IMG/VR virus record: IMGVR_UViG_3300034272_002779
Reading direction: 5' to 3' (one strand)
DNA from: an uncultured virus (IMG/VR IMGVR_UViG_3300034272_002779)
Lineage: Duplodnaviria > Heunggongvirae > Uroviricota > Caudoviricetes
Length of the DNA: 64,000 bases
A program made the translations under genes and the position numbers. How positions within the stretch are numbered: position 1 is the stretch's first letter; every line of letters starts with the position of its first letter. Under the pieces are notes generated by a model. The model saw only the letters and a list, made by a program, of their open reading frames with translations. It did not search any database and was not told the origin of the DNA. Positions 26,773 to 58,494 of the stretch are shown here, piece by piece.

Positions 26773-27156
26773 ATGAAAAATATAGAACTATACGAATCTT
26801 TTGAGGAAGAAGATCCAAAGGAACTTTTAAATGATTTTATAAAAGAGATATGGCCGGATATAGAAAAGTACCTGGAGTCAGCGGGATTGGAGAGTGATTA
26901 CGTTTGGATTGACGAGGAAGAATTCGCAATTGAATATTGGCCAACCAGCATGGATGGATCTGTACCTAACAGAATTTCCTATATAGTAGACGATTTAAAA
27001 ACCATTCTGGAGAAAGAAATGGGTACAGGTATATCGTGGAGATTTGCACCAAACGGGAACTGTCAAAGACTTATCTTTGTTCTGGATTCTCCTATAGAAA
27101 CTGGGTCTGTCACGGACAAAATACTTAAGGTTAAAAAGGCTTTAAAGTTCACATAA
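26773..27156 (+). CDS. Hypothetical protein with leader
   Basis: MKNIELYESF. Confidence 0.7.
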   Translation: MKNIELYESFEEEDPKELLNDFIKEIWPDIEKYLESAGLESDYVWIDEEEFAIEYWPTSMDGSVPNRISYIVDDLKTILEKEMGTGISWRFAPNGNCQRLIFVLDSPIETGSVTDKILKVKKALKFT

Positions 27157-27203
27157 TTTTTATTTCCGGGATTTGTTATTATATTTACCTAAATTTTAAA
27201 ACA

Positions 27204-27554
27204 ATGAAAGTAATCATAGCCGGAGGTAGAGACTTTATGGAATATGAACTTCTATATGAATCATGCAGAAGAATCTTTGAAAATCGTGAAATAAGAGAAA
27301 TTGTTAGTGGATGCGCTAAAGGGGCTGATAGGGTTGGAGAAAAATACGCTGAATTCAACAAGATACCGATTAAAAAATTTCCTGCAGAATGGGATAAGTA
27401 TGGTAAATCAGCAGGTTACCGTAGAAACAAGGAAATGGCAGACTATGGTGACGTTCTAGTTGCTTTCTGGAATGGTGAGAGCAAAGGAACTAAGCACATG
27501 ATAGATCTAGCAACGGCAAATAAATTAGAAGTACACGTAATAAAATACACATGA
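27204..27554 (+). CDS. SLOG family (YspA/DUF2493-like) protein
   Basis: IIAGGRDF, IVSGCAKGAD, AGYRRNKEMA, FWNGESKGTKHMI. Confidence 0.85.
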   Translation: MKVIIAGGRDFMEYELLYESCRRIFENREIREIVSGCAKGADRVGEKYAEFNKIPIKKFPAEWDKYGKSAGYRRNKEMADYGDVLVAFWNGESKGTKHMIDLATANKLEVHVIKYT

Positions 27555-27769
27555 GCACATTTATTAAATTAACACACTCCGACGTACAAGGAGATCTTAG
27601 GATTAATCCTATTTTTATATCTGCAATGAATAGATTAGATGATAGAACTGAGGTCTATTGCATGGGGGTAGAATATGCTTGGGAGGTAAAGGAAACCCCC
27701 GAAGAAATTATAAAACTTTCAGAGACTAAGAAATATTTTACCACCTATAATAAACCAGGAAATGAGTAG
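27551..27769 (+). CDS. FlbD-like small protein
   Basis: FIKLT...INP..I...VKETPEEI. Confidence 0.6.
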   Translation: MSTFIKLTHSDVQGDLRINPIFISAMNRLDDRTEVYCMGVEYAWEVKETPEEIIKLSETKKYFTTYNKPGNE

Positions 27770-28007
27770 ATACGTTATAAAAAACCAGGAGACCAATAGA
27801 ACATTGACATATGGATGGGATCACGCTCTTGGGTACTTCTATGACATTACCGATTCGTCTAAAAATGAAGATGAGCCTGGATATCTGATAGAGGAAAAAT
27901 GTTATTTTCTGAATCGGCTATCGCGAAACGATTTTGCTGAGGTACTTTTAGAATGGAAGGCTCCGGAAAAACATCTAACTTCTCTGAGCTTAGATCTGCC
28001 TTTTTAG
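27762..28007 (+). CDS. Hypothetical protein
   Basis: 81 aa, YGWDHALGYF. Confidence 0.65.
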   Translation: MSRYVIKNQETNRTLTYGWDHALGYFYDITDSSKNEDEPGYLIEEKCYFLNRLSRNDFAEVLLEWKAPEKHLTSLSLDLPF

Positions 28008-28555
28008 GAGTATGTGATTCTCCCAGCAGCCCTGCTACCAAGTTCTTTTAAAACACTATCTACGAAATCTTCCCAATTTACATAGGATACCTCCGGGGTT
28101 CCATTTATTTCTGCAGTTACCCTAAATTCGTTATAGGTAAATTTTCCTCTTTCTACGGTCCAGCTTATAGTGCAATCCCCTGTGTATATCGATTCAACAA
28201 AATCTCTCCCGTCATCATTGTTGCCTATCGCATCATATATCGCTTTTTCTATCTCGCTCGCCGTAAATAGAGGGGTTTCTTCAGAAGGATTTATATAGGC
28301 GAAAAGGTCATTCGATATCTGTTCATTGTCCATCTCTATATAGTAGTCGCTTGGATGATCGCTTAGTTCCGCAGTGATTTTTAGTTCTGTATCATCCTCC
28401 GAATAATCTAATTCCGGACTATGATCATCCATGTTTATTATGAAATATGATTCAGCTTGACTCTTCAGAGACTCTAATCCTTCTTTAATGTCCATGATAT
28501 TGAAATATTCATCATCGGACTCGTTAAGTTTTTTAAAACTTCTTATGTGCCTCAC
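28004..28555 (-). CDS. Acidic hypothetical protein with leader
   Basis: MRHIRSFKKLNE; TATATATC at ~28572. Confidence 0.7.
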   Translation of the reverse strand: MRHIRSFKKLNESDDEYFNIMDIKEGLESLKSQAESYFIINMDDHSPELDYSEDDTELKITAELSDHPSDYYIEMDNEQISNDLFAYINPSEETPLFTASEIEKAIYDAIGNNDDGRDFVESIYTGDCTISWTVERGKFTYNEFRVTAEINGTPEVSYVNWEDFVDSVLKELGSRAAGRITYS

Positions 28556-28590
28556 TTGTAGATTTTTTCTCTATATATCGATAGATTATC

Positions 28591-29169
28591 CTAGAGCTTT
28601 ACTAAAAGATCCTTCATCACATAAGCATCCCTATCCTGTATAGGGATATGACTTAAATCGACATATGGAATCTTTTCAAGTTCTAGATAATTCTTGATAA
28701 TCGAATCAAGTTTTATGATCTCTGCCTTATTGTGATATCTGATACCATCCTGCTCATCCTCTTCAAGAAAGGGTGGTACGTAGTATATCTTGTGCCACTG
28801 ATTGAGAGATTTCAGAATCTCCTTCTGGATATGATTTATCGTTGCTATGTCTTTCTGCGATAGAGTTGAATTGAATCTGGATCTAAAATAGAAATAGTTT
28901 AGGATTGAGCTCGAGTCGCATATGATCCAATCTTTACTACCATCGTACATTCTTTCTCTTCCTAGCTGCTTATAAAAGATAACTATTTGGTCAACAGGGG
29001 TATCCGGAATTCCCCACTCGGCTATATAATCAGTAGCTGCTTCTCCGACAAAGATCGAATTCTGTTTTCTTATTTTTAATCCATGATGCACAGAAGCTGC
29101 CAGTGTGCTTTTCCCTGATGATGGAGCTCCTATTATAGAAACCAATTTAGACTTTATCTCACCTTTCAT
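28591..29169 (-). CDS. P-loop NTPase/kinase (AAA_28, NadR-like)
   Basis: GAPSSGKSTLA, ICDSS, DGIR. Confidence 0.75.
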   Translation of the reverse strand: MKGEIKSKLVSIIGAPSSGKSTLAASVHHGLKIRKQNSIFVGEAATDYIAEWGIPDTPVDQIVIFYKQLGRERMYDGSKDWIICDSSSILNYFYFRSRFNSTLSQKDIATINHIQKEILKSLNQWHKIYYVPPFLEEDEQDGIRYHNKAEIIKLDSIIKNYLELEKIPYVDLSHIPIQDRDAYVMKDLLVKL

Positions 29170-29296
29170 TACCTCAAATTTAATTTTTATATCGTAAAAG
29201 ACATCTATTATTTCAGATCATTTAAAAAATATAATAATCTGATTTATCTTTTTTATCCCGTAACGTTGTTGTAAATTAGCTCTTAAATATAAGGAC

Positions 29297-30049
29297 ATGA
29301 ACAAGATATTAGAATCATTAGCACCATTCTGCCAAGAAAAAAACGCAGGAAATGCTACATTAAATACTGAAGAGCCAACTCCACGAGTAAAGTTTCTATT
29401 GTCTTTGTTAGATGGACTTGAGATTCCCTACGAGTTAGATAGTTTCCTAGCTAGAGAAACAACATACCATAATATCATTCTTCGTGGAACTAGTAATAGA
29501 ATGGTAATAGCTCATCATGATATAGTGAACCCAGATTCGGATAATGCTAACGATAACTCAGCATCTGTAATAAATGCAATCTACTTAAAATCCTTAGTCC
29601 CTGATCTTAATGTTGTTCTTACAGATGGTGAGGAAGTTGGATTTATTGGTGCTAATCATTTAGCTAAACAAATCCTCTGTGGGGATTTTGGTGATATTGA
29701 ATGGGTTCTTAATATAGAGCTAAGTGGTAAGGGGGGTAAGAACTTTATGATCGGGGCACATTCAGGGAAACTAACAGAGCACATTCTTGGTATATTCGAT
29801 GCACCTGTAGTTCAAACTCCTCCCAGTGACTGTTATGCTATTTCCAGGTATGGAATCGATACCAATGTCATCAATCCTCTTCCGATGCTATTAGAAGGAG
29901 AGTCTGGTATTAAGCAAGGAGATTCTTTCCTAGATAATTCTTCTTGGTATTTATGTCATAGCAAAGGTGATTCATTGGATAAAATCTCTCTTAAGGATAT
30001 GAACGAATTCGTGACTGAAGTTCTATATCCGATCGTAACACATAGATAA
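29297..30049 (+). CDS. M28 family metallopeptidase
   Basis: IAHHD, ANDNSAS, DGEEVGFIGA, CHSKGD. Confidence 0.8.
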   Translation: MNKILESLAPFCQEKNAGNATLNTEEPTPRVKFLLSLLDGLEIPYELDSFLARETTYHNIILRGTSNRMVIAHHDIVNPDSDNANDNSASVINAIYLKSLVPDLNVVLTDGEEVGFIGANHLAKQILCGDFGDIEWVLNIELSGKGGKNFMIGAHSGKLTEHILGIFDAPVVQTPPSDCYAISRYGIDTNVINPLPMLLEGESGIKQGDSFLDNSSWYLCHSKGDSLDKISLKDMNEFVTEVLYPIVTHR

Positions 30050-30067
30050 GGTTGGATATATAAGTAC

Positions 30068-30250
30068 ATGATACTTAAATTCCAAGAATTTATCACCGAG
30101 TCCAAAAAAGAGGACAAAAAAATCACAAAATCCAAATCGAAGAAGTCCACAAATTGCAATGAATGTGGACAGAAAATTAGAGAGTGTTCCTGTCAGGATT
30201 ATGGTGGAGGGTATCTAGGGCCAGAGATGCCATCAAATTTACTTTACTAA
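30068..30250 (+). CDS. Small Cys-containing protein with leader
   Basis: MILKFQEFITE, CNECG..CSC; GATATATA upstream. Confidence 0.6.
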   Translation: MILKFQEFITESKKEDKKITKSKSKKSTNCNECGQKIRECSCQDYGGGYLGPEMPSNLLY

Positions 30251-30252
30251 TT

Positions 30253-30453
30253 ATGATTAAAGCTTTTGTTATTAAATCCCAGACCATTAAGGAGGCTAAA
30301 GAGGTTTGGGGGGAATCCATATTGAATGATGTTTTCTCCATTACTCGAAAGGTTAAGCCAAATGAAGCTCTAGAAATTCTAAAAAACGAGAATAAATCTA
30401 AGCATTCCGACTGTTTACGATATATTTTTAGCGAAATGCTGATTAATAGGTGA
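30253..30453 (+). CDS. Hypothetical protein
   Basis: ATG 30253 directly after previous stop. Confidence 0.55.
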   Translation: MIKAFVIKSQTIKEAKEVWGESILNDVFSITRKVKPNEALEILKNENKSKHSDCLRYIFSEMLINR

Positions 30454-30469
30454 AACCATTTATTCTTTC

Positions 30470-30555
30470 TGATATAGAACACTAGCAACATTTAGGAGGT
30501 TCTCTAAAAATGTTTGTTTTGGTTTAGAATCAGGGAACACGGTTCCCTGATTTTT
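30470..30555 (+). ncRNA. Candidate antisense sRNA 1 (GU-rich seed + terminator)
   Basis: Intergenic; TCTAAAAATGTTTGTTTTGGTT (30503-30524) followed by terminator AATCAGGGAAC-acg-GTTCCCTGATTTTT; 5' end approximate. Confidence 0.5.
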
Positions 30556-30581
30556 ACTTCTAAGTAAATATATAACGGACT

Positions 30582-30788
30582 ATGAGCAACTCCGAATTTC
30601 TAGAAGAAATCCTTTTTGAAGGCCACAAATTGGGAATTATAGATCCATTAATGAATGAGGCTAAAATAGAAATAGATAAGGGTGTACATGCTCATCCCTG
30701 TGATGCTTACCTCTCAGCATTAGTTAGACTCATAAGGGAAATGGACATTAAGGAATCCTCTTTTTATTCCCTATCCCTGGTATCCTAA
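30582..30788 (+). CDS. Hypothetical protein
   Basis: 68 aa after AATATATA. Confidence 0.55.
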   Translation: MSNSEFLEEILFEGHKLGIIDPLMNEAKIEIDKGVHAHPCDAYLSALVRLIREMDIKESSFYSLSLVS

Positions 30789-30837
30789 TAGGTTTATCCG
30801 AAAGCCAAAAATATAAGCCAGAAAAAAGTAATGGAAA

Positions 30838-31161
30838 TTACTCCTTCCATTTCCATTTACATCCTAATCTCGTTTTTTCTGGATGATTGATACCTGTAAA
30901 TAAGCTGCCACAACTAGCATTATAGAATTTGGCAGCCTCTGATAAACTGTTCCATTCTCTAATAAAATTCATATTTAAATCCATCTGGATTAGGATTTTT
31001 GCTCTAGTTCTGTGGTTTCTTTCCTTTCCCTTCTGTGATTTACTCATTTTTTCCCTAGATTCTTGAGTATGAGATTTTCCTAACCATGATATTTTTTTCT
31101 TATGCTCTTCTGTAAACTTCCTGCATTTATTAATGCTAACTAATTCTCCATTTAGATATCT
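30838..31161 (-). pseudogene. Truncated homing endonuclease C-terminus (NUMOD3/NUMOD1-like DNA-binding repeats)
   Basis: Frame reads RYLNGELVSINK..FTEEHKKKIS..GKSHTQESREKMSKSQKG..IREWNSLSEAAK..GCKWKW, preceded by in-frame stops; no nuclease domain. Confidence 0.65.
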
Positions 31162-31367
31162 TTATTAGGGGTGTTATTTTTTACATTGATACCCATAAAA
31201 AAATATAATCCAAAAAATAGGAGAGATGTGAAATAGAAGATTAAATCGGTTGCCCAATATGACCCTGTCCACTTCATCACAAGAGCGAATAAAGCGTCGA
31301 ATCCTAGTGGATTGAAAAACGTTGCTAGGATCAGGGCAACTGTCTGGATCTTTTTTCTGTGATTCAT
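31152..31367 (-). CDS. Small membrane protein
   Basis: ATFFNPLGFDALFALVMKWTGSYW, two TM helices; start uncertain. Confidence 0.65.
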   Translation of the reverse strand: MNHRKKIQTVALILATFFNPLGFDALFALVMKWTGSYWATDLIFYFTSLLFFGLYFFMGINVKNNTPNKDI

Positions 31368-31528
31368 TATCCTTATGCTCAGGGTCCATAGTGGAAAATT
31401 TTTGCACAATTTTTATTCATAGTGGAAAAAAATTGAGGGATTCGAGTTATCCGATTGTATATATTGGAAAATTTTTAATTTTGCCGAAATATTTTGAATG
31501 ACACTCATATAAATTAAAAATAATAATT

Positions 31529-31837
31529 ATGGCAAATTTTGAAGCATGGGTAGATGTTGATCCAGATGATTACTGGAGAGAAATGTCTAAAAGGGAAAAG
31601 AAGGAAATGATCGGTATACTTGTGGAAGAGGCATCAGAAGATAATGATCTCATGGATTCACTAAAAGAAAACTTAAGCGAATATTCTAAAGGAAAAGCCG
31701 CATTAATATTTAGCTCGGATGCCTCTTATGATCAGATAGATTTTGAGAAGTCTCTTGTTGCTCTACAGGGAGCTTATTATAGTTTATCCAAGGAAAAGAT
31801 CGACCAGATAAACGAGATTGCTAAGTTATACAAATAA
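31529..31837 (+). CDS. Hypothetical protein
   Basis: 102 aa ORF. Confidence 0.65.
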   Translation: MANFEAWVDVDPDDYWREMSKREKKEMIGILVEEASEDNDLMDSLKENLSEYSKGKAALIFSSDASYDQIDFEKSLVALQGAYYSLSKEKIDQINEIAKLYK

Positions 31838-31838
31838 A

Positions 31839-32246
31839 ATGGAGTTACTAAACACACATCCAATTAAGAAGTCTGATTTGGGTTTCCATGGGAATCTATT
31901 TGGAGGAAAACTATTGGCTTGGATCGATGCAGCTGCAGCTGGTTATTCGATGCAGCTATGTGATACGCCAAGAATGGTAACTGTACAGATAGACAAGTGC
32001 AATTTTGAAAAACCAGCAAGAGAAGGACAGCTACTTAAAATATATGGTTATCCGACAGGAGTTGGTAACAGTTCTATTACTTTAATTATGGAGGCTAGAG
32101 CTCATAATGTTTATACTGGTAAGCAAATATTAGTTCTTAGAACACACATTAAATTTGTTCATATAGATGAGGAGGGACATCCGATACCTATCGGTGAGAA
32201 GGGGAAAAATAGAATCAACGATCTTATCGCTGATTTATCAAAATAA
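31839..32246 (+). CDS. Acyl-CoA thioesterase (hotdog fold)
   Basis: DLGFHGNLFGGKLLAWIDAAA, VGNSSI, FVHIDEEG. Confidence 0.88.
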   Translation: MELLNTHPIKKSDLGFHGNLFGGKLLAWIDAAAAGYSMQLCDTPRMVTVQIDKCNFEKPAREGQLLKIYGYPTGVGNSSITLIMEARAHNVYTGKQILVLRTHIKFVHIDEEGHPIPIGEKGKNRINDLIADLSK

Positions 32247-32315
32247 ATTTTTCAAATTATTTTTTTCCCCCGTAATCCTTTAATATATTTGAGTATAATT
32301 TAAAAAACATTATTT

Positions 32316-32753
32316 ATGGCTTACGAAAAAAAACCAGTTAACACAGCCGCTCCTTCTAACAATAAGGCGTGGACAAAAGATGATCTAAACATCCTACAGT
32401 CTTTGGCTGCAAAGGGTGCTTCAACCGTAGAGATCGCTAAGATCTTAGGAAGAACTAAAGCTTCTATATGGTGCAGAAAAAGCTCCATGGGCATTGATAG
32501 AAGATTGGCTTCCTCTAAAGGGAAGGGAATCGTTGCTCCGACTACAGTTAGCACCAAGATGCGAGGAGGTAAAAAGAAATTAAAAATCGAAACTCCTAAA
32601 ATGGAAACTCAGAAAAATGAAACTAAGATGAGTCTCCCTAAGGCAAATCCAGCACCACAGACCACTGTATATGCTAACGCAGTTCAAGGTCTAATGGATC
32701 TTAAGAAGTTAGCTAAGGTAACCGGAGCTAAAATTGTCATCACACTGGAGTAA
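32316..32753 (+). CDS. Myb/HTH-like DNA-binding protein
   Basis: WTKDDLNIL...EIAKILGRTKASI. Confidence 0.65.
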   Translation: MAYEKKPVNTAAPSNNKAWTKDDLNILQSLAAKGASTVEIAKILGRTKASIWCRKSSMGIDRRLASSKGKGIVAPTTVSTKMRGGKKKLKIETPKMETQKNETKMSLPKANPAPQTTVYANAVQGLMDLKKLAKVTGAKIVITLE

Positions 32754-32773
32754 TTAAACTCTTATACCGAAAT

Positions 32774-32806
32774 AAAATCCCTGTCTCTAATAGGCAGGGA
32801 TTTTTT
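32774..32806 (+). terminator. Intrinsic terminator
   Basis: AAAATCCCTGTCT-ctaat-AGGCAGGGATTTTT. Confidence 0.75.
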
Positions 32807-32821
32807 GTGATATATAGATTC

Positions 32822-33307
32822 ATGAGGTATATCCAGCTATTCGAATCATACACAGCAACTAATGCCGACTATAGTGCTATGGTATTCAACGTTCCTAATT
32901 TCAAGGAGGATTTTGAAAAATTAGCTGAGGCATTTCTCAGAGATTTGGGAAAGGATTATGATCTTAGAAAGGGAGAGAAATTCGATCCAAAGATAGGGAA
33001 CTGTGCATGGTACTCCAAGAAGTTCTTCGAGTGGTGTGAGAATCAGAGACTGCCGATTAAACTTATCTACTTCGACGAAACAAAGAAGAACAAGGAGGCT
33101 CATATAGCTCCTTATTTGGAAGGATGGGTTATAGATTTTACATATAAGCAATTCTCCGATAACTCCAAACAATCTTTTAGAGTTGGTAAGCCAGAGGATT
33201 ATGAAAAGTTAGGGTATGTTCTTAGTCCAGAAAACATCTACGAGGAATTCCCTAATTGGATAGAGACGATATATAGTTTGAAAAAAAAGGAAGATGAGGT
33301 ACATTAA
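32822..33307 (+). CDS. Papain/transglutaminase-like fold protein with leader
   Basis: MRYIQLFESY; GNCAW, AHIA, VIDFTYKQF (Cys-His-Asp). Confidence 0.6.
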   Translation: MRYIQLFESYTATNADYSAMVFNVPNFKEDFEKLAEAFLRDLGKDYDLRKGEKFDPKIGNCAWYSKKFFEWCENQRLPIKLIYFDETKKNKEAHIAPYLEGWVIDFTYKQFSDNSKQSFRVGKPEDYEKLGYVLSPENIYEEFPNWIETIYSLKKKEDEVH

Positions 33308-34112
33308 GCTATTTGAATATTTCTCTCCTGGAGATGGCAATAAGCTAAAGCATTTTATATTGGATGGTGCATCTTCCGCAGGTAAAAGCTCAGCTTTGGT
33401 TAATCTAGATTCATCTTGGTGTGTATTAGCGGTAGACTCTTTTTACAATGTTATGTTTGAAGAATTGGGAATGGAAGATTTTGGTAATAGGGGAAAGCCA
33501 ACTATTTCAGAGATCTATCCAGGATGTCCATATAAGTATACTAGTCCAGAGGATTATCCTAATTACGATAAGGCTGCTAGATGGTATATGGCACAAGAAG
33601 CTATGTATGGTAAGATTTTTGAAACAGGTCTAAAAGATGCTTCGGGAAATCTATTCGGTAAGCCACACGATAAGAATAAGGTGATATATGATGATGTTGA
33701 GGGGAGGGTGATCGATATGTTTAATAAGGCGGATAAACCAAAATGGTTACTTATTCATGCTCCCATAGATCACACTATTAAGAATGTTCAGAGAAGGGGA
33801 GACAGACCTTTGGATGGTGTTCTTAAGAATTCCTACTGTTTTAAGTATTATGCAAAACCTATTCGAGGTGGTGTTGACCCAGATAAGTCATGGACTGCCG
33901 ATGAGATAAGATCTTTACTACCGAAAGAAGAATGGGTAGAAGTATTTCTAACGGATCTCGGTATATCGGATGAGAATAGAGAATATTGGATTTACCCTAA
34001 ACCACAGCCTCAGGGTGAATATGACGTGATTATTAACACAAGAGACAGTAAAGGAAATCAAAAGTCGATAGAGCAAATTGCAAAAGAGGCTAAAATAAAA
34101 TTTGAACAGTGA
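33294..34112 (+). CDS. P-loop small-molecule kinase (CPT-like) with leader
   Basis: MRYIKLFEYF; LDGASSAGKS, VIYDDV, RRGDR, YDVIINT. Confidence 0.68.
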   Translation: MRYIKLFEYFSPGDGNKLKHFILDGASSAGKSSALVNLDSSWCVLAVDSFYNVMFEELGMEDFGNRGKPTISEIYPGCPYKYTSPEDYPNYDKAARWYMAQEAMYGKIFETGLKDASGNLFGKPHDKNKVIYDDVEGRVIDMFNKADKPKWLLIHAPIDHTIKNVQRRGDRPLDGVLKNSYCFKYYAKPIRGGVDPDKSWTADEIRSLLPKEEWVEVFLTDLGISDENREYWIYPKPQPQGEYDVIINTRDSKGNQKSIEQIAKEAKIKFEQ

Positions 34113-34924
34113 GATACATTAAATTATTTGAATATTTTCAAAAAACCAGACAGACATCGGATATCACTCTAGCGTGGTCTACGAGAAGACTAAATCCTCT
34201 GGACATTGGGGTATGGAAAGGAAAGGGCATAGAACCCAATAGAAAAGTCTATAAGAAAGGAACGATGGACGGAATACCGTATTCTAGTAGAACCATGTTT
34301 ACATTCCCGAATGACGGAACCCTTTTAGAAAATATCAAATACATCTCAGGAGGAATAACAAGAAAAGATGTTGCTGAATTGGTTGATTATGGGATTTCTT
34401 TGCTCCCTAGTAAAATGGAGCTGGAGAATTATGATGTTGTTCTTATACCGGATAGCAGATCTAGGTTATTGGTTGAAATGGTTGATGCTCTTTTAGACAT
34501 AGCTCCATCATATTCATCACATAAAAAGGAATGGAAGCCAAATGTAATAAGCAGAGCTTTTAGTAAAAGAAACTGTAACGAGGTAGAGTGGGATATGGAT
34601 AAATTGAATAGGGTAAACTCTCAGGACACGAGAAATCAAGTACTGAGGATTATAGAAAAAGTAAGGGGAAGAACTGAGCCCTTTAGATTATCCGATCATT
34701 TACAATATCCGCCACATAGAAAATTTGTAGCCAGATTCATGGATATAAGCCCGATAGCTCAAGAGGATGTCAGAGGTAAAAGAGTCTTAATCGTTGATGA
34801 CTTTGTTACAGACGGAACAACTAAAAGACAGATGAGGGATCTAGTTTTACCCTTTGGTCCTAGAGAGGTTACTAACTTGGCTCTATTTAATATCAAGGGA
34901 GCGAGAGACTCCGACGAGGCTTAG
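34109..34924 (+). CDS. Type I phosphoribosyltransferase-fold protein with leader
   Basis: MRYIKLFEYF; PRPP-binding loop RVLIVDDFVTDGTT. Confidence 0.72.
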   Translation: MRYIKLFEYFQKTRQTSDITLAWSTRRLNPLDIGVWKGKGIEPNRKVYKKGTMDGIPYSSRTMFTFPNDGTLLENIKYISGGITRKDVAELVDYGISLLPSKMELENYDVVLIPDSRSRLLVEMVDALLDIAPSYSSHKKEWKPNVISRAFSKRNCNEVEWDMDKLNRVNSQDTRNQVLRIIEKVRGRTEPFRLSDHLQYPPHRKFVARFMDISPIAQEDVRGKRVLIVDDFVTDGTTKRQMRDLVLPFGPREVTNLALFNIKGARDSDEA

Positions 34925-35010
34925 TATTTATTAATTTTAAAGCACTTTAAAGAGCTTTATTAGAGAAGCTAAGTTATCCGATAGATTTATCTAAATAATG
35001 TCTTATAACA

Positions 35011-44652: not shown

Positions 44653-44714
44653 TTTAGTTTATTTTTTTTGGTTTATATATCTCCAAATATAAGGAAGAAT
44701 TGCGGAAGAATCAT

Positions 44715-45389
44715 TTATATCATACCCTTAAATCCATGGTAAGCCCTTATCAATTCCAGTCTCTTTATTTCTTCCGGCCCCACCCACTCGAACTCTGGTT
44801 TGTAGAGTAGCATCTGATCCTCTAACGGGATCTCGCTCCAAAGTGACTCTACAGCCTCCTGATAGCTCATCTCATCTTCCATTTGGTAGAATATACTCCT
44901 GAGTGTATCCTCAGAAACCGGATTATTTACACATTTGAACATCCCTCCGATTTTCTGAGGGGCACCTTCGAGAGAGGTGAGCTGGTTGTTGCTACAATTG
45001 AAATCGCTACCGATTTCCTGTGGTGCTCCCTCCAGTGAGGTAAGCTGGTTGTTGTTACAAAAGAAATCAAGGCCAACTCTCTTTGGTGATCCCACCAGCG
45101 AGGTGAGCTGATTGTCGTCACAATAGAAACCCTCAGCCTCCTGTGGTGCTCCCTCCAGTGAGGTGAGACGGTTGTCCTCGCATGAAAAATATGCTCTCAC
45201 TACACCAAATCTAACTCCTTTAAAATCTGTCAGATCCTGTCCAGTGCAGCTAAAGCTCCCATCCACATCAACAAGTCCGGTATGAGGATTAATAGTCCAT
45301 TTATCAGAGCACTCATCAAGCCACTCGATCTGCTCCGGGGTAAGCTCTACCGCACTCTCAAACATCTTATATGTCTTTAGATTCTTCAT
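44715..45389 (-). CDS. LRR array paralog (4 repeats)
   Basis: FxCxxNQLTSLEGAPQxVGxx repeats with shared N-cap and C-cap. Confidence 0.88.
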   Translation of the reverse strand: MKNLKTYKMFESAVELTPEQIEWLDECSDKWTINPHTGLVDVDGSFSCTGQDLTDFKGVRFGVVRAYFSCEDNRLTSLEGAPQEAEGFYCDDNQLTSLVGSPKRVGLDFFCNNNQLTSLEGAPQEIGSDFNCSNNQLTSLEGAPQKIGGMFKCVNNPVSEDTLRSIFYQMEDEMSYQEAVESLWSEIPLEDQMLLYKPEFEWVGPEEIKRLELIRAYHGFKGMI

Positions 45390-45391
45390 TC

Positions 45392-46447
45392 CTATATCAT
45401 ACCCTTAAATCCTTGGTAAGCCTTTAACGCTTCCAGCTTCCTTCCCTCCTCTGGACTCACCCACTCGAACTCTGGTCTGTACAGCAGAGCCTGATCCTCT
45501 ATAGGGATCTCATTCCAGAGTGATTCCATAGCCTGGATGTAACTCTTCCCTTTCTCCATGGGGTATAATATTCTCCTGAGTGTCTCTTCAGAAACCGGAT
45601 TGCTCTCGGAATAGAAAATCCCATTAATCTCCCGTGGTGCCCCATCCAGTGAGGTGAGCTGGTTGTTTTCGCAGAAGAAACCCCCTCTGACCCGCTGTGG
45701 TGCTCCCTCCAGTGAGGTGAGCTGGTTGTTCCTGCAAATGAAATCCTCTCCAACCTCCTGTGGTGCTCCCTCTAGTGTGGTGAGCTGATTGTGGTCACAA
45801 CTGAACCAAAATCCAACCTTCTGTGGTGCTCCCACCAGTGAGGTGAGCTGGTTGTTGCTACAATTGAAAGCCTGTCCAACACTCTGCGGTGCTCCCTCCA
45901 GAGAGGTGAGCTGGTTGTTGGTACACTTGAAACTCCCTCTGACCCGCTGTGGTGCTCCCACCAGTGATGTGAGCCGGTTGTTCTCACAATAGAAATACCC
46001 AGCAATCTCCTGTGGTGCTCCCACCAGTGATGTGAGCCGGTTGTTCTGGCAATAGAAATACCCACCAACATCCTGTGGTGCTCCCTCCAGTGAGGTGAGC
46101 TGGTTGTTGCTACAATTGAAATCCTGCCCAACACTCTGTGGTGCTCCCACCAGTGAGGTGAGCTGGTTGTCGTGGCAATAGAAATCCCCTCCAACATCCT
46201 GTGGTGCTCCCTCCAGTGAGGTGAGCTGATTGTTCCGGCAAATGAAATCCTCACTGACCACTCCAAACCTAACGTCTTTAAAATCTGTCAGATCCTGTTC
46301 AGAGCAATCGAAATCCCCATCCACATCAACCAGTCCGGTTTGTGGATTAATAGTCCATTCATCAGTGCACTTGTCCAACCACTCGATCTGCTCTGGTGTA
46401 AGCTCTACCGCACTCTCAAACATCTTATATGTCTTTAGATTCTTCAT
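45392..46447 (-). CDS. LRR array paralog (10 repeats)
   Basis: Same architecture as other array members. Confidence 0.88.
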   Translation of the reverse strand: MKNLKTYKMFESAVELTPEQIEWLDKCTDEWTINPQTGLVDVDGDFDCSEQDLTDFKDVRFGVVSEDFICRNNQLTSLEGAPQDVGGDFYCHDNQLTSLVGAPQSVGQDFNCSNNQLTSLEGAPQDVGGYFYCQNNRLTSLVGAPQEIAGYFYCENNRLTSLVGAPQRVRGSFKCTNNQLTSLEGAPQSVGQAFNCSNNQLTSLVGAPQKVGFWFSCDHNQLTTLEGAPQEVGEDFICRNNQLTSLEGAPQRVRGGFFCENNQLTSLDGAPREINGIFYSESNPVSEETLRRILYPMEKGKSYIQAMESLWNEIPIEDQALLYRPEFEWVSPEEGRKLEALKAYQGFKGMI

Positions 46448-46448
46448 T

Positions 46449-47135
46449 TTATATCATACCTTTAAATCCTTGGTAAGCTCTTAACGCTTCCAGCTTCCTT
46501 CTCTCCTCTGGACTCACCCACTCGAACTCTGGTCTGTACAACAGAGTCTGATCTTCTAACGGAATCTTGCTCCAGAGTGATTCCACAGCCTGCATGTGAC
46601 TCTCCCCTTTCTTCATGAGGGAGAATATTCTCTTGAGTGTTTCATTAGAAACTGGGTTGCCGTAGCAATAGAAAATCAATCTCACCCGCTGTGGTGCTCC
46701 CACTAGAGAAGTGAGCTGGTTGTTGTCACATCTAAAATCCCCTTCAACCTCCCGTGGTGCACCCTCCAGTGAGGTGAGCTGATTGTTGTTACAATAGAAA
46801 TCCCATCCAACCTTCTGTGGTGCTCCCTCCAGTGTGGTGAGCTGGTTGTCACTACAACTGAAACCCCCACCAACCCGCTGTGGTGCTCCCTCCAGTGTGG
46901 TGAGCTGGTTGCCGTAGCAATAGAAATACCCACTGACCACTCCAAACCTAACGTCTTTAAAATCTGGCAGATCCATACGAGAGCAGCCAAAATCCCCATC
47001 CACATCAACCAGTCCGGTTTGTGGATTGAGTGTCCAGGTACCATCAATGCACTCGTCAAGCCACTCGATCTGCTCTGGTGTAAGTTCTCCTACACTCTCA
47101 AACAGTTGGCGATATGTCTTTAGATTCTTCATCAT
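46449..47135 (-). CDS. LRR array paralog (4 repeats)
   Basis: Same architecture as other array members. Confidence 0.88.
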   Translation of the reverse strand: MMKNLKTYRQLFESVGELTPEQIEWLDECIDGTWTLNPQTGLVDVDGDFGCSRMDLPDFKDVRFGVVSGYFYCYGNQLTTLEGAPQRVGGGFSCSDNQLTTLEGAPQKVGWDFYCNNNQLTSLEGAPREVEGDFRCDNNQLTSLVGAPQRVRLIFYCYGNPVSNETLKRIFSLMKKGESHMQAVESLWSKIPLEDQTLLYRPEFEWVSPEERRKLEALRAYQGFKGMI

Positions 47136-47139
47136 AATA

Positions 47140-47952
47140 CTATATCATACCTTTAAATCCTTGGTAAGCTCTTAACGCTTCCAGTTTTCTTACCTCCTCT
47201 GGACTCACCCACTCGAACTCTGGTCTGTACAACAGAGCCTGATCCTCTACTGGAATCTCGTTCCAGAGTGTCTCCACAGCCTGAATGTAACTCTCCCCTT
47301 TCTTCATGAGGGAGAATATGCTCTTAAGAGTCTCCACAGAAACTGGGTTGTTCTCACAATAGAAATAATCCCGTCCGATCTCCAGTGTTGCTCCCTCCAA
47401 TGAGGTGAGCTGGTTGTCCCCACAATAGAAATACCCATCCACCTTCTGTGGTGCTCCCTCCAGTGTGGTGAGCTGATTGTTCTCACAATTGAACCTCCCT
47501 CCAACCCGCTGTGGTGCTCCCTTCAGTGAGGTGATCTGGTTGCCGTTACACTCGAAATACCCTCCAACCTTCTGTGGTGCTCCCTCCAGTGTGGTGAGCT
47601 GATTGTTGTTACAAAAGAAACCACTTCTGACCCGCTGTGGTGCTCCCACCAGTGAGGTGAGCTGGTTGTTGCTACAACTGAAATGCTCTCCAACCTCCTG
47701 TGGCGATCCCTCCAATGAGGTGAGCTGGTTGTTCCTACAATTGAAACTCCCACTCACCACTCCAAACTTAACGCCTTTAAAATCTGTCAGGTCCTGTCTA
47801 AAGCAATCGAAGTCTCCTTTCACATCAACCAGTCCTGTTCGTGGATTGATCTTCCAGGTACCATCAGTGAACTTGTCCAGCCACTCGATCTGCTCTGGTG
47901 TGAGCTCTTGTGTGTTCTCAAACATTTGGCGATATGTCTTTAGATTCTTCAT
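47140..47952 (-). CDS. LRR array paralog (6 repeats)
   Basis: Same architecture as other array members. Confidence 0.88.
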   Translation of the reverse strand: MKNLKTYRQMFENTQELTPEQIEWLDKFTDGTWKINPRTGLVDVKGDFDCFRQDLTDFKGVKFGVVSGSFNCRNNQLTSLEGSPQEVGEHFSCSNNQLTSLVGAPQRVRSGFFCNNNQLTTLEGAPQKVGGYFECNGNQITSLKGAPQRVGGRFNCENNQLTTLEGAPQKVDGYFYCGDNQLTSLEGATLEIGRDYFYCENNPVSVETLKSIFSLMKKGESYIQAVETLWNEIPVEDQALLYRPEFEWVSPEEVRKLEALRAYQGFKGMI

Positions 47953-48699
47953 TTATATCATACCTTTAAATCCTTGGTAAGCCTGGAGAGCTTCCAGCTT
48001 TCTTCTCTCCTCTGGACTCACCCACTCGAACTCTGGTCTGTACAGCAGAGCCTGATCCCCTAATGGAATCTCACCCCAGAGAGACTCCACAGCCTGAAGA
48101 TAGCTCTCACCCTTCGTCATGGTGGAGAAGATGCTCTTGAGTGTCCCTTTGGAAACTGGGTTGCCCTCACAATTGAAATGCCGTCCGATCTCCCGTGGTG
48201 CTCCCTCCAGTGAGGTGAGCTGGTTGTTACTACAATAGAAATACCTCCCAACCTTCTGTGGTGCTCCCTCCAGTGTGGTGAGCTGATTTCCCTCACAAAT
48301 GAAATCACCCTCAACCTTCTGTGGTGCCCCCACCAGTGAGGTGAGCTGGTTGTTGTCACACCTGAAACGCTCTCCTACCTCCTGTGGTGCCCCCACCAGT
48401 GAGGTGAGCTGGTTGTTGTTACAATAGAAACCCTCACCAACCTTCTGTGGTGCTCCCTCCAGTGAGGTGAGCTGGTTGTAGTCACAACCGAAATCCTTAC
48501 TCACCACTCCAAACCTAATCCCTTTGAAATCCGTCAGATCATGTTCAGAGCAATCGAAGTCTCCTTTCACATCAACCAGTCCTGTTCGTGGATTGATCTT
48601 CCAGGTACCATCAATGCACTCGTCAAGCCACTCGATCTGCTCTGGTGTGAGCTCTCCCACACTCTCAAACAGTTGGCTATATGTCTTTAGATTCTTCAT
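47953..48699 (-). CDS. LRR array paralog (5 repeats)
   Basis: Same architecture as other array members. Confidence 0.88.
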   Translation of the reverse strand: MKNLKTYSQLFESVGELTPEQIEWLDECIDGTWKINPRTGLVDVKGDFDCSEHDLTDFKGIRFGVVSKDFGCDYNQLTSLEGAPQKVGEGFYCNNNQLTSLVGAPQEVGERFRCDNNQLTSLVGAPQKVEGDFICEGNQLTTLEGAPQKVGRYFYCSNNQLTSLEGAPREIGRHFNCEGNPVSKGTLKSIFSTMTKGESYLQAVESLWGEIPLGDQALLYRPEFEWVSPEERRKLEALQAYQGFKGMI

Positions 48700-49572
48700 T
48701 TATATCATGCCTTTAAATCCAGCGTAAGCCTTAATGACATCCAGCTTCTTACCAAACTCTGGACTCACCCACTCGAACTCTGGTCTGTATAACAGAGCCT
48801 GATCATCTAATGGAATCTCGTTCCAGAGTGTCTCCACAGCCTGCAGGTAGCTATTCCCTTCCTTCGTGAGGGAGAATATGCTCTTGAGTGTCTCTTCAGA
48901 AACGGGGTTTTTCTCACAATAGAAACCCCCTCCAACCTTTTGTGGTGCTCCCTCCAGAGAGGTAAGTTGGTTTCTATCGCAATTGAAACTTCCACCGACC
49001 TCCTGTGGTGCTCCCTCCAGTGAGGTGAGGTTGTTGCCCTCACAAAGGAAACGCTCTCCTACCTCCTGTGGTGCCCCCTCCAGCGAGGTGAGCTGGTTGT
49101 TGTTACAACTGAAACCTCTTCCGACCCGCTGTGGTGCTCCCTCCAGTGAGGTGAGCTGGTTGTCGCTGCAATAGAAATCATGTCCAACCCGCTGAGGTGC
49201 TCCCTCTAGGGAGATGAGCTGGTTGTCCTCACAATTGAAATTCGCTCCGACTTCCTGAGGTGCTCCCACCAGCGAGGTGAGCTGGTTGTACCTACAATAG
49301 AAATCCTCTCCAACCTTCTGTGGTGCTCCCTCTAGGGAGATGAGCTGGTTGTTGCTGCAATAGAAATACCCACTGACCACTCCAAACCTAATCCCTTTGA
49401 AATCTGTCAGGTCCTGTTCAGAGCAATTGAAATCCCCATCCACATCAACAAGTCCGGTTTGTGGATTGATCTTCCAGGTACCATCAGTGCACTTGTCCAA
49501 CCACTCGATCTGCTCTGGTGTAAGCTCTCCCACACTCTCAAACAGTTGGCGATACGTCTTCAGATTTTTCAT
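48700..49572 (-). CDS. LRR array paralog (7 repeats), first in operon
   Basis: Same architecture; GATATATA late motif at 49579-49586 just upstream. Confidence 0.88.
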   Translation of the reverse strand: MKNLKTYRQLFESVGELTPEQIEWLDKCTDGTWKINPQTGLVDVDGDFNCSEQDLTDFKGIRFGVVSGYFYCSNNQLISLEGAPQKVGEDFYCRYNQLTSLVGAPQEVGANFNCEDNQLISLEGAPQRVGHDFYCSDNQLTSLEGAPQRVGRGFSCNNNQLTSLEGAPQEVGERFLCEGNNLTSLEGAPQEVGGSFNCDRNQLTSLEGAPQKVGGGFYCEKNPVSEETLKSIFSLTKEGNSYLQAVETLWNEIPLDDQALLYRPEFEWVSPEFGKKLDVIKAYAGFKGMI

Positions 49573-49780
49573 CCCACTATATATCTCTCAATATAAGGCA
49601 TCATCCCGGTCTAAAAAAAAATGTGTTGGGGGCTTTTGGGACCAAATCCCCAGGAGGGGCCCGCCCACCAAATAGATGTAGTATATGTTCCGTCTCCTAT
49701 AGATAGAGGTAGTGATAGATAGAGTACAGTCACACACACTAAAGAGCATGAGCACACAATCGCATATAGACAAGGTAAAC

Positions 49781-52513: not shown

Positions 52514-52806
52514 TCCAATATATAATTTACACCAAATCAAATTATATGAAGACCACTAAAGATAAAACAAAGGGTAAATGGACTCAGGAATCTTTTCAAG
52601 GTAAGAGTCAAAGAAACTACGAAACTTCCGCGACCATTATTCTTTGGTGCTCAATCCTTACAGCAGTAATTTCTATCTCCGCAATTTTTTTCAAAATTTT
52701 TTTCTAAAGGGGTTTACTTTTTCCATTTTTTTCCTTATAATTAGATAAAGAAAAAATTTTTTTCCTGGAACTGAATACTTAATTTAGAATTATCAAAACA
52801 AACAAA

Positions 52807-54907: not shown

Positions 54908-55144
54908 AATTCTAGAAACTCCTTCAATACACCGTGAGAGACTCTCCGAGGTGTAACACATTCTGCTCTGAATATTTTTCTTACGTTTCGAAAGAAATGA
55001 ATTGCATCAACAATATATAGAGACATAGCCCAATTTCAAAAGATAAAAGAGCGGACACGAATTTACGGTCCGCTTTTTTTATGGTTTATTTTTTTATCCC
55101 GTGTTAGTGGATTAATTTAGTTGAGTAAATCAAAAGGGTGTATT

Positions 55145-55762
55145 ATGGAAAATCTAAGTTTAACAATGGATACTGGTATTTATAAGATACTAGGTCAGAT
55201 CAAGAAAGCCTTGATCACCTCGCTAATGCTTGGCGGGATATTTATAGTTCTAATTGGCGTGTACGCTATATTCGTTTCACTACTCATGGCAGTAGGTGTT
55301 TCAGCAGAAGGAGCAGGTTACGTTGTGGGTATGATGCCATTCATCAACGGTGCATTCCATGCAGATTTTGGTCATCTCTTCGGAAATCTCCTTATACTAT
55401 TCATCTTTCTCCTGCCAGAGGTAAACCAGGGTTATGATCTGAAGAAGCTGTTCTGGACCTCAGCAATTCTATCCACTATTTACATACCAATATTCATTCT
55501 GGGTCTATCATGGCCGGTAATTGGATCCTCTGGAGTATTCTACTTTTTAATGGGGAGATTCATATTTAGCAGAAAGTTAGTTGTGTCTAAGATATTTGCC
55601 TATGGATTCTTTTTCCTTATTATGATGGGTGATTTGGGTATGATGGCCTCTGACGACGGTGTAGCTCATCTCTTCCATGTGATGTGTGCAGTAATTGGAA
55701 TCGTAACAGTTACGAGACTAAGTAAAAGAATTCCAGAAGGGATACATAAGTTAATAGCATAA
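55145..55762 (+). CDS. Rhomboid family intramembrane serine protease
   Basis: FHADFGHLFGN, IGSSGVFY, VAHLFH; multi-TM. Confidence 0.8.
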   Translation: MENLSLTMDTGIYKILGQIKKALITSLMLGGIFIVLIGVYAIFVSLLMAVGVSAEGAGYVVGMMPFINGAFHADFGHLFGNLLILFIFLLPEVNQGYDLKKLFWTSAILSTIYIPIFILGLSWPVIGSSGVFYFLMGRFIFSRKLVVSKIFAYGFFFLIMMGDLGMMASDDGVAHLFHVMCAVIGIVTVTRLSKRIPEGIHKLIA

Positions 55763-55778
55763 AAATAATTTTTAGAAA

Positions 55779-56117
55779 ATGATATTCTACGGTATAGCGG
55801 ATGCACATGGTATAGAGAGTTTCAAACCTCAGCAGTTTGATTCAGAGGTCGAGCAATTTAATGCTGATCCCAAAGAGCTGTCGATAATGGCATTGAGAGC
55901 AAATGCTAATAGACACAGACATGCTGTTGTTTATCAAGCAGAGGTTGAAAGTCATACGGCTAAAGAGATTCTGGATCTTCTTAAAGATGGAGATTATGTT
56001 GAAGCTTTGGTGAAACTAAAGGAGGAGGCAACATCTATAAGTCTTATGAGAAGTCCAGGAGCTGAGAAGAGCTGGAATCTAATTCCAAACTCAGATCTGG
56101 ATCCGTACCGAGATTAA
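55779..56117 (+). CDS. Hypothetical protein
   Basis: 112 aa ORF. Confidence 0.65.
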   Translation: MIFYGIADAHGIESFKPQQFDSEVEQFNADPKELSIMALRANANRHRHAVVYQAEVESHTAKEILDLLKDGDYVEALVKLKEEATSISLMRSPGAEKSWNLIPNSDLDPYRD

Positions 56118-56135
56118 CGTTTTAAATAATAACAT

Positions 56136-56411
56136 ATGCCAGTCAAAGTAAAAGACGAGTACAGAACAAATCCACTAAGTGTGGAGCCAGGAGGACACGA
56201 GGTAACTGTAATCCACGAAGGAGGAAAGACCTTCATTTATGATAAGGTTAAGAGACCGGGAGCTTATATCAAGGGTATCTCTAGTGTAACTCAAACCAAG
56301 AACGGACCAATCATCAAGATTAACATCGACGGTGAAGAGGTGTGGAACGTGAGACACGATGAAACAGAACCTTGGGATAGTCCAGCTATTAAGAATCTAG
56401 GAAAGAAGTAG
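56136..56411 (+). CDS. Hypothetical protein
   Basis: 91 aa ORF. Confidence 0.65.
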   Translation: MPVKVKDEYRTNPLSVEPGGHEVTVIHEGGKTFIYDKVKRPGAYIKGISSVTQTKNGPIIKINIDGEEVWNVRHDETEPWDSPAIKNLGKK

Positions 56412-56415
56412 GACT

Positions 56416-56685
56416 ATGAAAAAGATTTTAAGAAAAATAGCAGAAGCGGGTAAGACGATATCATCTGGGAACTTCAAAGCCTCACAATTGTTAATAGCAG
56501 TACCGTTAGTTATTTTAGCAGCAGCTATCATACTATCGATTCCTCTATTACTAGTATGGGGATTACAGCTTTTAGGTTTCGATGAGGTTAGGGTTGGTTT
56601 TAGAAGTTGGTTTGGTGCAATCCTTATTATGCTATTTCTAGCTTATGCCTCAGTTATAAGAGTTAACGGAAATAAGAATCAGTAA
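56416..56685 (+). CDS. Membrane protein
   Basis: Two TM helices. Confidence 0.6.
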   Translation: MKKILRKIAEAGKTISSGNFKASQLLIAVPLVILAAAIILSIPLLLVWGLQLLGFDEVRVGFRSWFGAILIMLFLAYASVIRVNGNKNQ

Positions 56686-56696
56686 ACTAAAGGAAG

Positions 56697-56969
56697 ATGA
56701 GAACTATAGAGTTATATAAAAACCAATCCCAGATGGTGGAAGGGTTAAAGCTTAGACAGAGTTTAAGCAACATCGTGGAGGATGCCGAGGTGATTGATCT
56801 GAAAGCTCTTGGGTATCTCATGCTTCAAAAGGAATGGACAGAGGAAGAAATTGAATCTGATCTTGGATCAGTAGCTATCGAAGCTCTCCTTGATGAGATT
56901 GAAAATGCTGACCACTCTAAGATAGTTACCGTTGTTAAGACTTTAAGAGATCAAGGGGCAATTATCTAA
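56697..56969 (+). CDS. Hypothetical protein
   Basis: 90 aa ORF. Confidence 0.6.
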   Translation: MRTIELYKNQSQMVEGLKLRQSLSNIVEDAEVIDLKALGYLMLQKEWTEEEIESDLGSVAIEALLDEIENADHSKIVTVVKTLRDQGAII

Positions 56970-57140
56970 AAAATTGATTCACTTTCGAATATATAAGTTT
57001 CCACTCGGAATCTCAGATTCCGTCCATATACACCCAAAAAAGAAATCCTCCGGACGCCAAGCGACTGGAGGGTTTTTTATCAGAGATTATTTTTTTTCCC
57101 AGAACTGGTTAATTAAATTTACTTAACAAACAAACAAATT

Positions 57141-58492: not shown

Positions 58493-58494
58493 GA

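Follow-up and report, generated by a model that had tools for sequence, protein, structure and literature searches.

A conserved G/U-rich segment in a 3′ untranslated region of a 290-kb phage is a candidate trans-acting RNA complementary to the phage's own leaders

A 64,000-nt stretch of an uncultured Caudoviricetes phage (IMG/VR record IMGVR_UViG_3300034272_002779), hereafter referred to as the window, carries on its + strand a 22-nt G/U-rich segment, TCTAAAAATGTTTGTTTTGGTT, at 30503-30524. This segment lies in the 3′ untranslated region (3′UTR) of a small gene, ORF66, just ahead of an intrinsic terminator, and is complementary to the start-region leaders of distant genes in the same window. 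We think it somewhat better than even, with a probability of roughly 0.6, that the segment is part of a trans-acting anti-leader RNA, either embedded in or processed from the 3′UTR, that pairs with C/A-rich leaders of the phage. The window corresponds to bases 189,710-253,709 of the IMG/VR record, which is 289,651 bp long and rated 100% complete.

An earlier note on this DNA had proposed a trans-acting antisense regulator, and the sequence relations on which it drew hold throughout. The segment 30503-30524 is identical to 1577-1598 on the same strand, 2 nt from the ATG (1574-1572) of a minus-strand gene; relative to that start codon, positions -24 to -3 of the leader form a perfect 22-nt complement to the segment. 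The gene (3-1574, - strand) runs off the window and encodes a secreted protein with a cohesin domain (Pfam Cohesin, E 3.6e-7) and a signal-peptide-like N-terminus. Likewise, 30511-30526 is the exact reverse complement of 61301-61316 (+ strand), which ends 4 nt before the ATG at 61321. This 16-nt perfect complement covers positions -20 to -5 of the leader of a RadA-like gene (61321-62331), the product of which is a KaiC/RecA-type ATPase, and an early-type promoter cassette (TTTTTTATCCGG..TTATTTTAGC) lies upstream of it. A weaker third target is the leader of gene 62397-63491 (+ strand), in which AATCAAAACAAACG at 62380-62393 pairs over 14 nt with two G.U pairs.

The cohesin gene is directly preceded by an endolysin-like gene (1628-2458, - strand) with PG_binding_1 and glycoside hydrolase 19 domains. 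The gap between the two is a 53-nt C/A-rich spacer with no promoter box, so the cohesin "leader" is probably intercistronic.

The core 14-mer of the motif, AACCAAAACAAACA, occurs exactly three times in the 289,651-bp record, all at three of the sites named above (the element, the cohesin leader and the RadA-like leader), and its reversed control does not occur at all. When up to two mismatches are allowed, the window contains 10 matches compared to 0.80 expected, and none of 100 shuffles reached 10. Of the 10 matches, seven lie 2-10 nt upstream of an ATG on their own strand and one more overlaps the cohesin site, which identifies the motif as a leader motif. At 30511-30524, it is inverted relative to the flanking + strand genes.

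We compared the 25-nt seed region to the start regions of the 346 genes called in the genome with a crude open reading frame (ORF) and codon-usage model. The longest Watson-Crick run was 22 nt, compared to a maximum of 13 nt in 100 composition-matched shuffles. With G.U pairs allowed, runs of at least 14 nt were found at nine start regions; shuffles averaged 1.18 such regions (maximum 8), and the reversed seed had two. Ten genomes simulated with an order-3 Markov model each contained 0-3 repeats of at least 20 nt, direct and inverted together. The real genome contains 144 collapsed locus pairs with such repeats; nearly all are tandem repeats at the genome start, paralogues or promoter cassettes, and the pair 30503-30524/1577-1598 is among the few isolated ones.

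Sequence motifs place the segment in the + strand tail of a short mRNA. A promoter-like box, GATATATA (30055-30062), stands 13 nt before the ATG of ORF60, in the short spacing class of this box. ORF60 (30068-30250), the first gene of the unit, encodes a small protein with a 63% identical homologue in the related locus L004 and no Pfam or PHROGs family. It is followed by ORF66 (30253-30453), which encodes a small conserved helical protein and bears the element in its 3′UTR. The next recognizable stop signal after the 30055 box is the terminator at 30529-30555, and the downstream gene (ATG at 30582) has its own probable promoter, AATATATA (30567-30574). This box, 15 nt before the ATG and again in the short GATATATA spacing class, is conserved in the window, L004 and L010.

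The candidate regulatory RNA is thus the 102-nt 3′UTR (30454-30555, + strand) between the ORF66 stop codon and the end of the terminator, with the 22-nt segment and, inside it, the 15-mer ATGTTTGTTTTGGTT at 30510-30524. The same layout, from the ORF66 stop (30453 in the window) through the 3′UTR to the shared terminator (ending at 30555), is found at 13 related loci, and the clade represented by genome G002 repeats the whole unit, with GATATATA, the ORF66 homologue, the seed and the terminator in this order. In 12 related sequences, the element directly follows a homologue of ORF66, with identities of 27-95%. As in small RNAs (sRNAs) of the 3′UTR type such as DapZ and CpxQ, the element lies downstream of a stop codon, shares the terminator of the mRNA and has the seed as its most conserved part.

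The hairpin at 30529-30551 has a 10-bp stem and an ACG loop, with a folding energy of -14.2 to -15.2 kcal/mol, and T5 comes directly after it (30551-30555); it faces the + strand, as the earlier note had read it. In all 14 related sequences, a hairpin with an energy of between -14 and -19 kcal/mol precedes T5-T8. Across these sequences, stem levels 1, 5, 7, 8 and 9 have changed on both sides with pairing preserved, with G.U intermediates in L010, L241 and L261, and the terminator is conserved with three or four different stems. A hairpin with a U-tract on the transcribed strand, conserved in structure rather than in sequence, is what is expected of an intrinsic terminator. A consensus terminator scanner missed the hairpin at 30529-30555. 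The compensatory changes in the stem, next to a 15-mer that is kept, indicate that the hairpin is selected for its shape and the 15-mer for its sequence.

To follow the element through related phages, we used the M28 peptidase gene upstream of ORF60 as an anchor and compared 12 loci from viral and 80 from metagenome sequences. Six of the viral loci (L004-L008 and L010) and 14 of the metagenome loci carry the element. Of the metagenome loci, 61 extend downstream for at least 1 kb beyond the M28 gene, and 12 of these have the element; all 12 belong to the 14 loci whose M28 protein is at least 68% identical to that of the window, and none of the 47 more distant loci carries it.

Within the conservation set of 14 non-identical related sequences, ATGTTTGTTTTGGTT is unchanged in 13, and the remaining one, L261, has a single T>C. 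Between clades, ORF66 identity is as low as 27-33% and no alignment is possible for the remaining spacer, so that the seed is more conserved than the 3′UTR around it. When the window is aligned with L228 and L229, the differences concentrate immediately behind the stop codon, in the spacer that precedes the hairpin, in its loop and beyond the T-run. No change occurs in the 42 nt up to the end of the seed, and TAGCAAC...GGTT is likewise invariant. Among the closest relatives, the block 30483-30555 is identical except for the spacer at 30525-30527 and the hairpin loop. These comparisons place the 15-mer under strong sequence constraint in the relatives.

The bare 15-mer is not diagnostic of the element. 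A scan of IMG/VR found it in at least 119 stretches, with an estimated total of approximately 410, almost all of which are unrelated coding sequence or leaders of other phages. A 17-mer scan returned 19 stretches; a terminator follows in just six, and all six are known relatives. Two unrelated small viral contigs, L098 (15 kb; 364-458) and L127 (10 kb), contain the same 15-mer followed by a -20 kcal/mol hairpin and T7; the arrangement has a + strand gene on either side and TATATTTG ahead of it. This may represent an independent case of the design. No complementary leader was found in the L098 and L127 records, which are 24% and 16% complete, and because of this incompleteness and the missing leader they cannot serve as an independent replicate.

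Four related records were compared over their whole length, and the element is present in four whole genomes and absent from two. The cohesin leader matches the element of its own genome over 22 nt in the window's genome (G000), over 18 nt in G001 and over 21 nt, with one G.U pair and with the AUG covered, in G002. The sequence that element and cohesin leader have in common differs from genome to genome (..ACATTTTTAGA in G000, ..ACATCTT in G001 and ..ACATCTATGA in G002), and the 5′ flank of the seed tracks the local leader: TCTAAAAAT with leader ..ATTTTTAGA in G000, TCTAAAGAT with leader ..ATCTT.. in G001, and TCATAGAT with leader ..ATCTATGA in G002. A CAT is kept opposite the AUG position of the target in the G002, G003, L237, L239, L241 and L242 types. 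The orthologue of gene 62397 in G002 likewise matches perfectly over 18 nt including the AUG, or over 21 nt with one G.U pair.

All four substitutions in orthologous target cores (one in the cohesin leader of G002, one in the gene 62397 leader of G002 and two in the gene 62397 leader of G000) are transitions that keep G.U pairing with the all-G/U seed. Two genomes without the element, G004 and G006, are also without the motif in their RadA-like, gene 62397 and cohesin leaders. In G004, the element is absent from the syntenic site and the RadA-like and gene 62397 leaders have longest runs of 6-7 nt; G006 has no element, and its cohesin homologue has a different leader.

Residues 26-225 of the cohesin protein are 85-94% identical to the products of genes on many other IMG/VR contigs, which have different signal peptides and leaders; these leaders do not contain the motif. 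The G001 orthologue is only 62% identical, yet it has the same leader and N-terminus. This pattern suggests that the cohesin gene is a mosaic, its body having been exchanged downstream of a retained leader and signal peptide.

Building on these sequence relations, the motif-based anatomy of the unit, the conservation, the covariation of the terminator and the co-occurrence with the leader motif, we hypothesize the following mechanism. The 15-22 nt G/U-only stretch at 30503-30524 would be the functional core of a + strand RNA formed by the 3′ end of the ORF60-ORF66 transcript and ending at the terminator 30529-30555. This RNA may be released as a species of approximately 75 nt (30483-30555), or it may be active while still within the mRNA. 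It would pair in trans with the cohesin leader (-24 to -3), with the RadA/KaiC-like leader (-20 to -5) and, more weakly, with those of gene 62397 and a few others. A leader covered in this way, together with the AUG in the G002/G003 type, could not be loaded by the 30S subunit, or the message would be marked for cleavage. We infer from sequence that the RNA is made, that it pairs and that its effect is repressive; the choices between a processed sRNA and a part of the mRNA and between repression and activation, as well as the timing of action, are likewise read from the sequence.

Several results weigh against this hypothesis. A duplex-energy scan of 33 nt against the 346 start regions did not beat mononucleotide shuffles: the best duplex was -28.4 kcal/mol, the best per shuffle averaged -22.1 and the lowest of 60 shuffles reached -30.8, and 30 start regions scored -15 kcal/mol or lower compared to a shuffle mean of 34. 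For runs of at least 10 nt, the reversed seed matched 119 start regions and the real seed 108. As the reversed seed equals the real one at this low stringency, we attribute the weak matches to U-rich/A-rich composition and count only the long ones. Against the composition-matched null named in the earlier note, the matches stand out in the run-length and repeat tests and not in the duplex-energy test.

The seed itself may be only partly available, as minimum free energy (MFE) folds of all 14 sequences pair part of it to an upstream A/C-rich segment, in registers that differ among them. The GATATAG box that precedes the seed has not been kept in L228 and L229, and copies of this word show no enrichment upstream of genes (10/102), which leaves an internal promoter for a stand-alone sRNA unsupported. 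A search for RNA sequencing runs that contain 27000-35000 listed none. The cognate pairing is the best one in just two of three genomes; for the G001 element, the predicted pairing is stronger with the leader of G000 (-29.2) than with that of G001 (-24.8). Genome G003, 99% complete by CheckV, retains the element and has no orthologues of the cohesin, RadA-like and 62397 genes, nor any complementary stretch of at least 13 nt. In L233, the M28 protein of which is 86% identical to that of the window, the homologues of ORF66 and ORF68 are 38 nt apart (1085-1126), with neither seed nor terminator nor promoter box between them, so that the element is dispensable in this lineage. The co-occurrence of element and leader motif also rests on small numbers, four whole genomes with the element and two without.

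Taken with the evidence above, what stands of the earlier proposal is a motif on a + strand transcript that ends at a terminator, is constrained, is complementary to the leaders of the cohesin, RadA-like and neighbouring genes and has a flank that tracks the cohesin leader of its own genome. What changes is its setting: the motif belongs to the 3′UTR of the ORF60-ORF66 mRNA, with no support for a promoter of its own, with the energy null unbeaten and with the seed partly folded.

The G/U tract could instead act in cis, as one arm of a structured 3′ end that serves the stability or termination of the ORF66 mRNA or binds a protein, its likeness to leaders being a matter of low-complexity composition. 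We consider this unlikely. The pairing of the tract with the upstream A/C-rich segment in 14/14 MFE folds agrees with it, as do the fold of a 103-nt 3′UTR RNA (-29.4 kcal/mol, z -4.27), the modest enrichment of G/U runs before terminators in G000 and G002, and the presence of the element in G003 without the named targets. However, the registers of the upstream hairpin vary by lineage and its 5′ arm is not conserved; a structural arm could covary as the terminator does, yet the tract is invariant. Moreover, composition leaves unexplained the 22-, 18- and 21-nt matches to one orthologous leader, with flanks specific to each lineage. We are also doubtful that the 15-22 bp are the DNA site of a phage regulator, with the RNA complementarity as a by-product. 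Such a site would lie between promoter and start at the targets; ahead of gene 30582, it would be inverted and placed approximately 45 nt from the promoter box, on its upstream side. The motif does occur just downstream of the promoter boxes of the RadA-like gene and gene 62397, a classic operator position, and 30510-30524 is upstream of the AATATATA box at 30567; a double-stranded site would work in either orientation, and invariance suits a protein site equally well. An operator would not account for a likeness that reaches 21-22 bp with lineage-specific flanks and extends over the AUG in G002, for the cohesin motif in an intercistronic spacer without a promoter box, or for target-core substitutions that are wobble-compatible transitions in 4/4 cases, and it would have no need of the + strand terminator to which the element is joined in every lineage. 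No candidate regulator was identified.

The earlier note had named a relic of a lost minus-strand gene as a possible refutation, and a functionless inverted promoter-leader cassette, left by such a gene or by recombination, is a reading that we hold to be quite improbable. Read on the minus strand, the element does resemble a leader and is followed in the G002 and G003 types by an ATG and an ORF of 5-8 codons; promoter-leader cassettes are repeated many times in the genome, and the element has been lost cleanly in L233. However, no relative has a minus-strand gene at this site. The minus-strand ORF 30177-30491 (104 aa) overlaps the conserved ORF66, which is 88% identical in L004, and its start is not conserved; in our reading it is a shadow ORF. 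Mini-ORFs are likewise not a conserved feature, being absent from G000 and G001, and the upstream side on the minus strand has no promoter box and is occupied by the hairpin. Neutral sequence would also not stay invariant beside proteins at approximately 30% identity. Least probable by far is that the invariant ATG opens a tiny + strand peptide (MFVLV...). The codons ATG TTT GTT TTG GTT are invariant, and in the window they are preceded by AGGAGG and an A-run. This frame, however, has five codons in the window and 13-16 or more, running through the hairpin with unrelated sequence, in the relatives; the AGGAGG just upstream of the seed is not conserved, and Shine-Dalgarno (SD)-like motifs occur at just 29 of 346 starts in a phage that does not use them. 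We therefore rejected a leader peptide or micro-ORF.

No known RNA family accounts for the element. Rfam 15 gave no match at gathering score in the whole window; in 30400-30620 at E<=10, the best was STnc290 with 22.1 bits compared to a gathering score of 60, and GcvB was absent from the 18 weak matches. In enterobacteria, GcvB pairs through a G/U-rich seed with C/A-rich stretches around the translation starts of several mRNAs, and DapZ, an sRNA derived from a 3′UTR, likewise directs a G/U seed against C/A-rich targets. The element resembles both in its G/U seed and C/A-rich initiation regions and DapZ also in placing the seed in a 3′UTR next to a shared terminator. It differs from them in having no sequence or structure homology to either, in being encoded by a phage with the phage's own genes as targets, and in belonging to a host type without SD sequences. 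Bacteroidota are not known to have Hfq either.

Lambda OOP and P22 sar are antisense RNAs of the cis type, encoded opposite their targets. The element is not of this type, as its targets are approximately 29 kb and 31 kb away and only the shadow ORF lies opposite it. The c4 RNA of P1/P7 and the CI RNA of P4 are antisense to the ribosome-binding regions of phage genes without being transcribed from the opposite strand of those genes. Those RNAs are processed from the leader of the operon that they control, whereas the element lies at a 3′ end, with targets 29 and 31 kb away and one of them on the other strand. Bacteroides thetaiotaomicron also has chromosomal sRNAs, of which GibS is an example. 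On comparative sequence evidence, we regard the element as a new family of a known kind of regulator.

Among phage-encoded small RNAs, VpdS of phage VP882 and PreS of lambda depend on Hfq, belong to temperate phages of Proteobacteria and mostly address host mRNAs or sRNAs, whereas the element is found in a 290-kb phage of a Bacteroidota-type host and matches phage leaders. Like the element as proposed, VpdS and PreS are reported to act by base pairing, in the lytic cycle (PMC12197685; 10.1101/2024.10.31.621285). The role proposed here, shutting off or tuning a class of phage messages through their initiation regions, resembles that of the T4 translational repressor RegA and the T4 endoribonuclease RegB (PMC3014915); these are proteins, whereas we propose an RNA effector and a C/A-rich leader in place of GGAG or the RegA site. 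The sRNAs of B. thetaiotaomicron are also reported to pair at start regions in a phylum without SD-led initiation (PMC7366714); they differ in being chromosomal, with no homology found to the element, which is viral and shares its terminator with an mRNA.

In the main text of a 2025 review (PMC12197685), the terms "Bacteroid", "Flavobacter" and "jumbo" each occur 0 times, and in the accessible parts of the literature searched we found no phage-encoded regulatory RNA from Bacteroidota or jumbo phages. Going by these sources, nearly all descriptions of RNA regulation encoded by phages concern temperate phages of Proteobacteria. If the proposed mechanism is correct, it would offer a first point of entry to post-transcriptional control in large freshwater Bacteroidota phages and would show that an antisense RNA can gate initiation on A-rich leaders without SD sequences. 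It would also provide a simple testable pair, a 15-nt all-G/U seed and a C/A-rich leader.

A second G/U-rich trailer (TTGTTTGTTTGTTTTGATT), followed by a hairpin and T5, is located at 58525-58575 (+ strand) in the 3′UTR of gene 58217-58492, between convergent genes. It is complementary over 15 nt (52792-52806) to the leader of gene 52807, right up to the ATG, and over 14 nt to the leader of gene 62397. Its syntenic counterpart is G/U-rich in G002 and A-rich in G004. Upstream of predicted terminators in general, G/U runs are modestly enriched in G000 (4/110 compared to 0.85 expected, P 0.011), and five are listed in G002 compared to 1.04 expected; they are not enriched in G001, G003 and G004. 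Further G/U tracts (TTAGGTTGGTTGGTTAT and similar) stand directly before terminators at genome positions 264,542 and 266,876, outside the window, and, in G002, at 72,369, 77,695 and 85,578. They lie within the region of early-type cassettes, the leaders of which begin with TAACCAA.., and show rough complementarity to this start.

As a tentative extension, which may well prove wrong, these Bacteroidota-type jumbo phages might time the translation of gene classes through such G/U trailer RNAs (30503-30524 and 58525-58543 in the window; four in the genome) that read early-cassette and cohesin leaders. This would be an RNA-only counterpart of RegA/RegB in a host that uses neither SD sequences nor Hfq.

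The setting of the element also bears on its interpretation. Similar records in the phage collection are solely uncultured phages of 484-642 kb. The leaders upstream of the 346 called genes are A-rich (56-66% A at -14 to -11) and G-poor. A-rich leaders without SD sequences are a known pattern of Bacteroidota, and this pattern points to a Bacteroidota-type host for the 290-kb phage. In a search linked to phages that encode bS21, no match to Ribosomal_S21 was found in this genome.

For this phage group, the analysis defines two promoter classes, a leader motif and terminators. The upstream word most enriched across the genome is (G)ATATATA, with 63 occurrences of ATATATA compared to 4.2 expected. 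By sequence, GATATATA is the dominant promoter-like box of the genome; 48 of its 58 copies lie within 80 nt upstream of a start on the same strand. Two classes can be told apart by the distance from GATATATA to the ATG (12-15 nt and 23-30 nt), a division that points to near-leaderless and short-leader messages. Examples in the window are found at 25621, 30055, 32809, 33268 and 50687 on the + strand and at 61244, 59488, 49585, 44681 and 44082 on the - strand. A sigma-70 style promoter scan gave fewer sites than in shuffles. Pfam searches on 11 window genes, made to class the timing of the GATATATA promoters, returned CHAP, SLT and DUF5661, a sub-threshold LRR match and nothing else; these matches are insufficient to call the promoters a late timing class.

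The second promoter class is the early-type cassette, which is found in near-identical form at approximately 20 + strand genes (55094-64000 in the window and on to 264.3 kb of the genome). Its form is TTTTTTATCC(C/T)(G/A)-N9-11-TTAyATTT-N4-6-(A)TAACCAATTAAAA..ATG, which looks like a host-type (TAnnTTTG-like) promoter joined to a fixed leader. Variants are also present at the M28 peptidase gene (29253), the RadA-like gene and gene 62397. The M28 gene (29297), upstream of ORF60, has its own copy (TTTTTTATCCCG..TAAATTAGC), and the RadA-like gene and gene 62397 have the same cassette.

Between the M28 gene and ORF60, the G001 lineage contains an additional 352-aa gene with its own GGATATATA box (L004, 4787-5845). 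The AlphaFold model of ORF66 has five helices, with a predicted local distance difference test (pLDDT) score of 87; ORF66 has no Pfam or PHROGs family and no Foldseek match in the PDB at E<=0.001. We considered ORF66 as an RNA chaperone and did not retain it, as the missing family and structural match are evidence neither way.

Elsewhere in the window, a run of paralogous genes occupies 44700-49600 (- strand), with further members at 273.2-274.3 kb of the genome. These genes have 44-49% G+C compared to approximately 37% elsewhere and share many repeats of at least 20 nt, and one of them has a sub-threshold LRR match.

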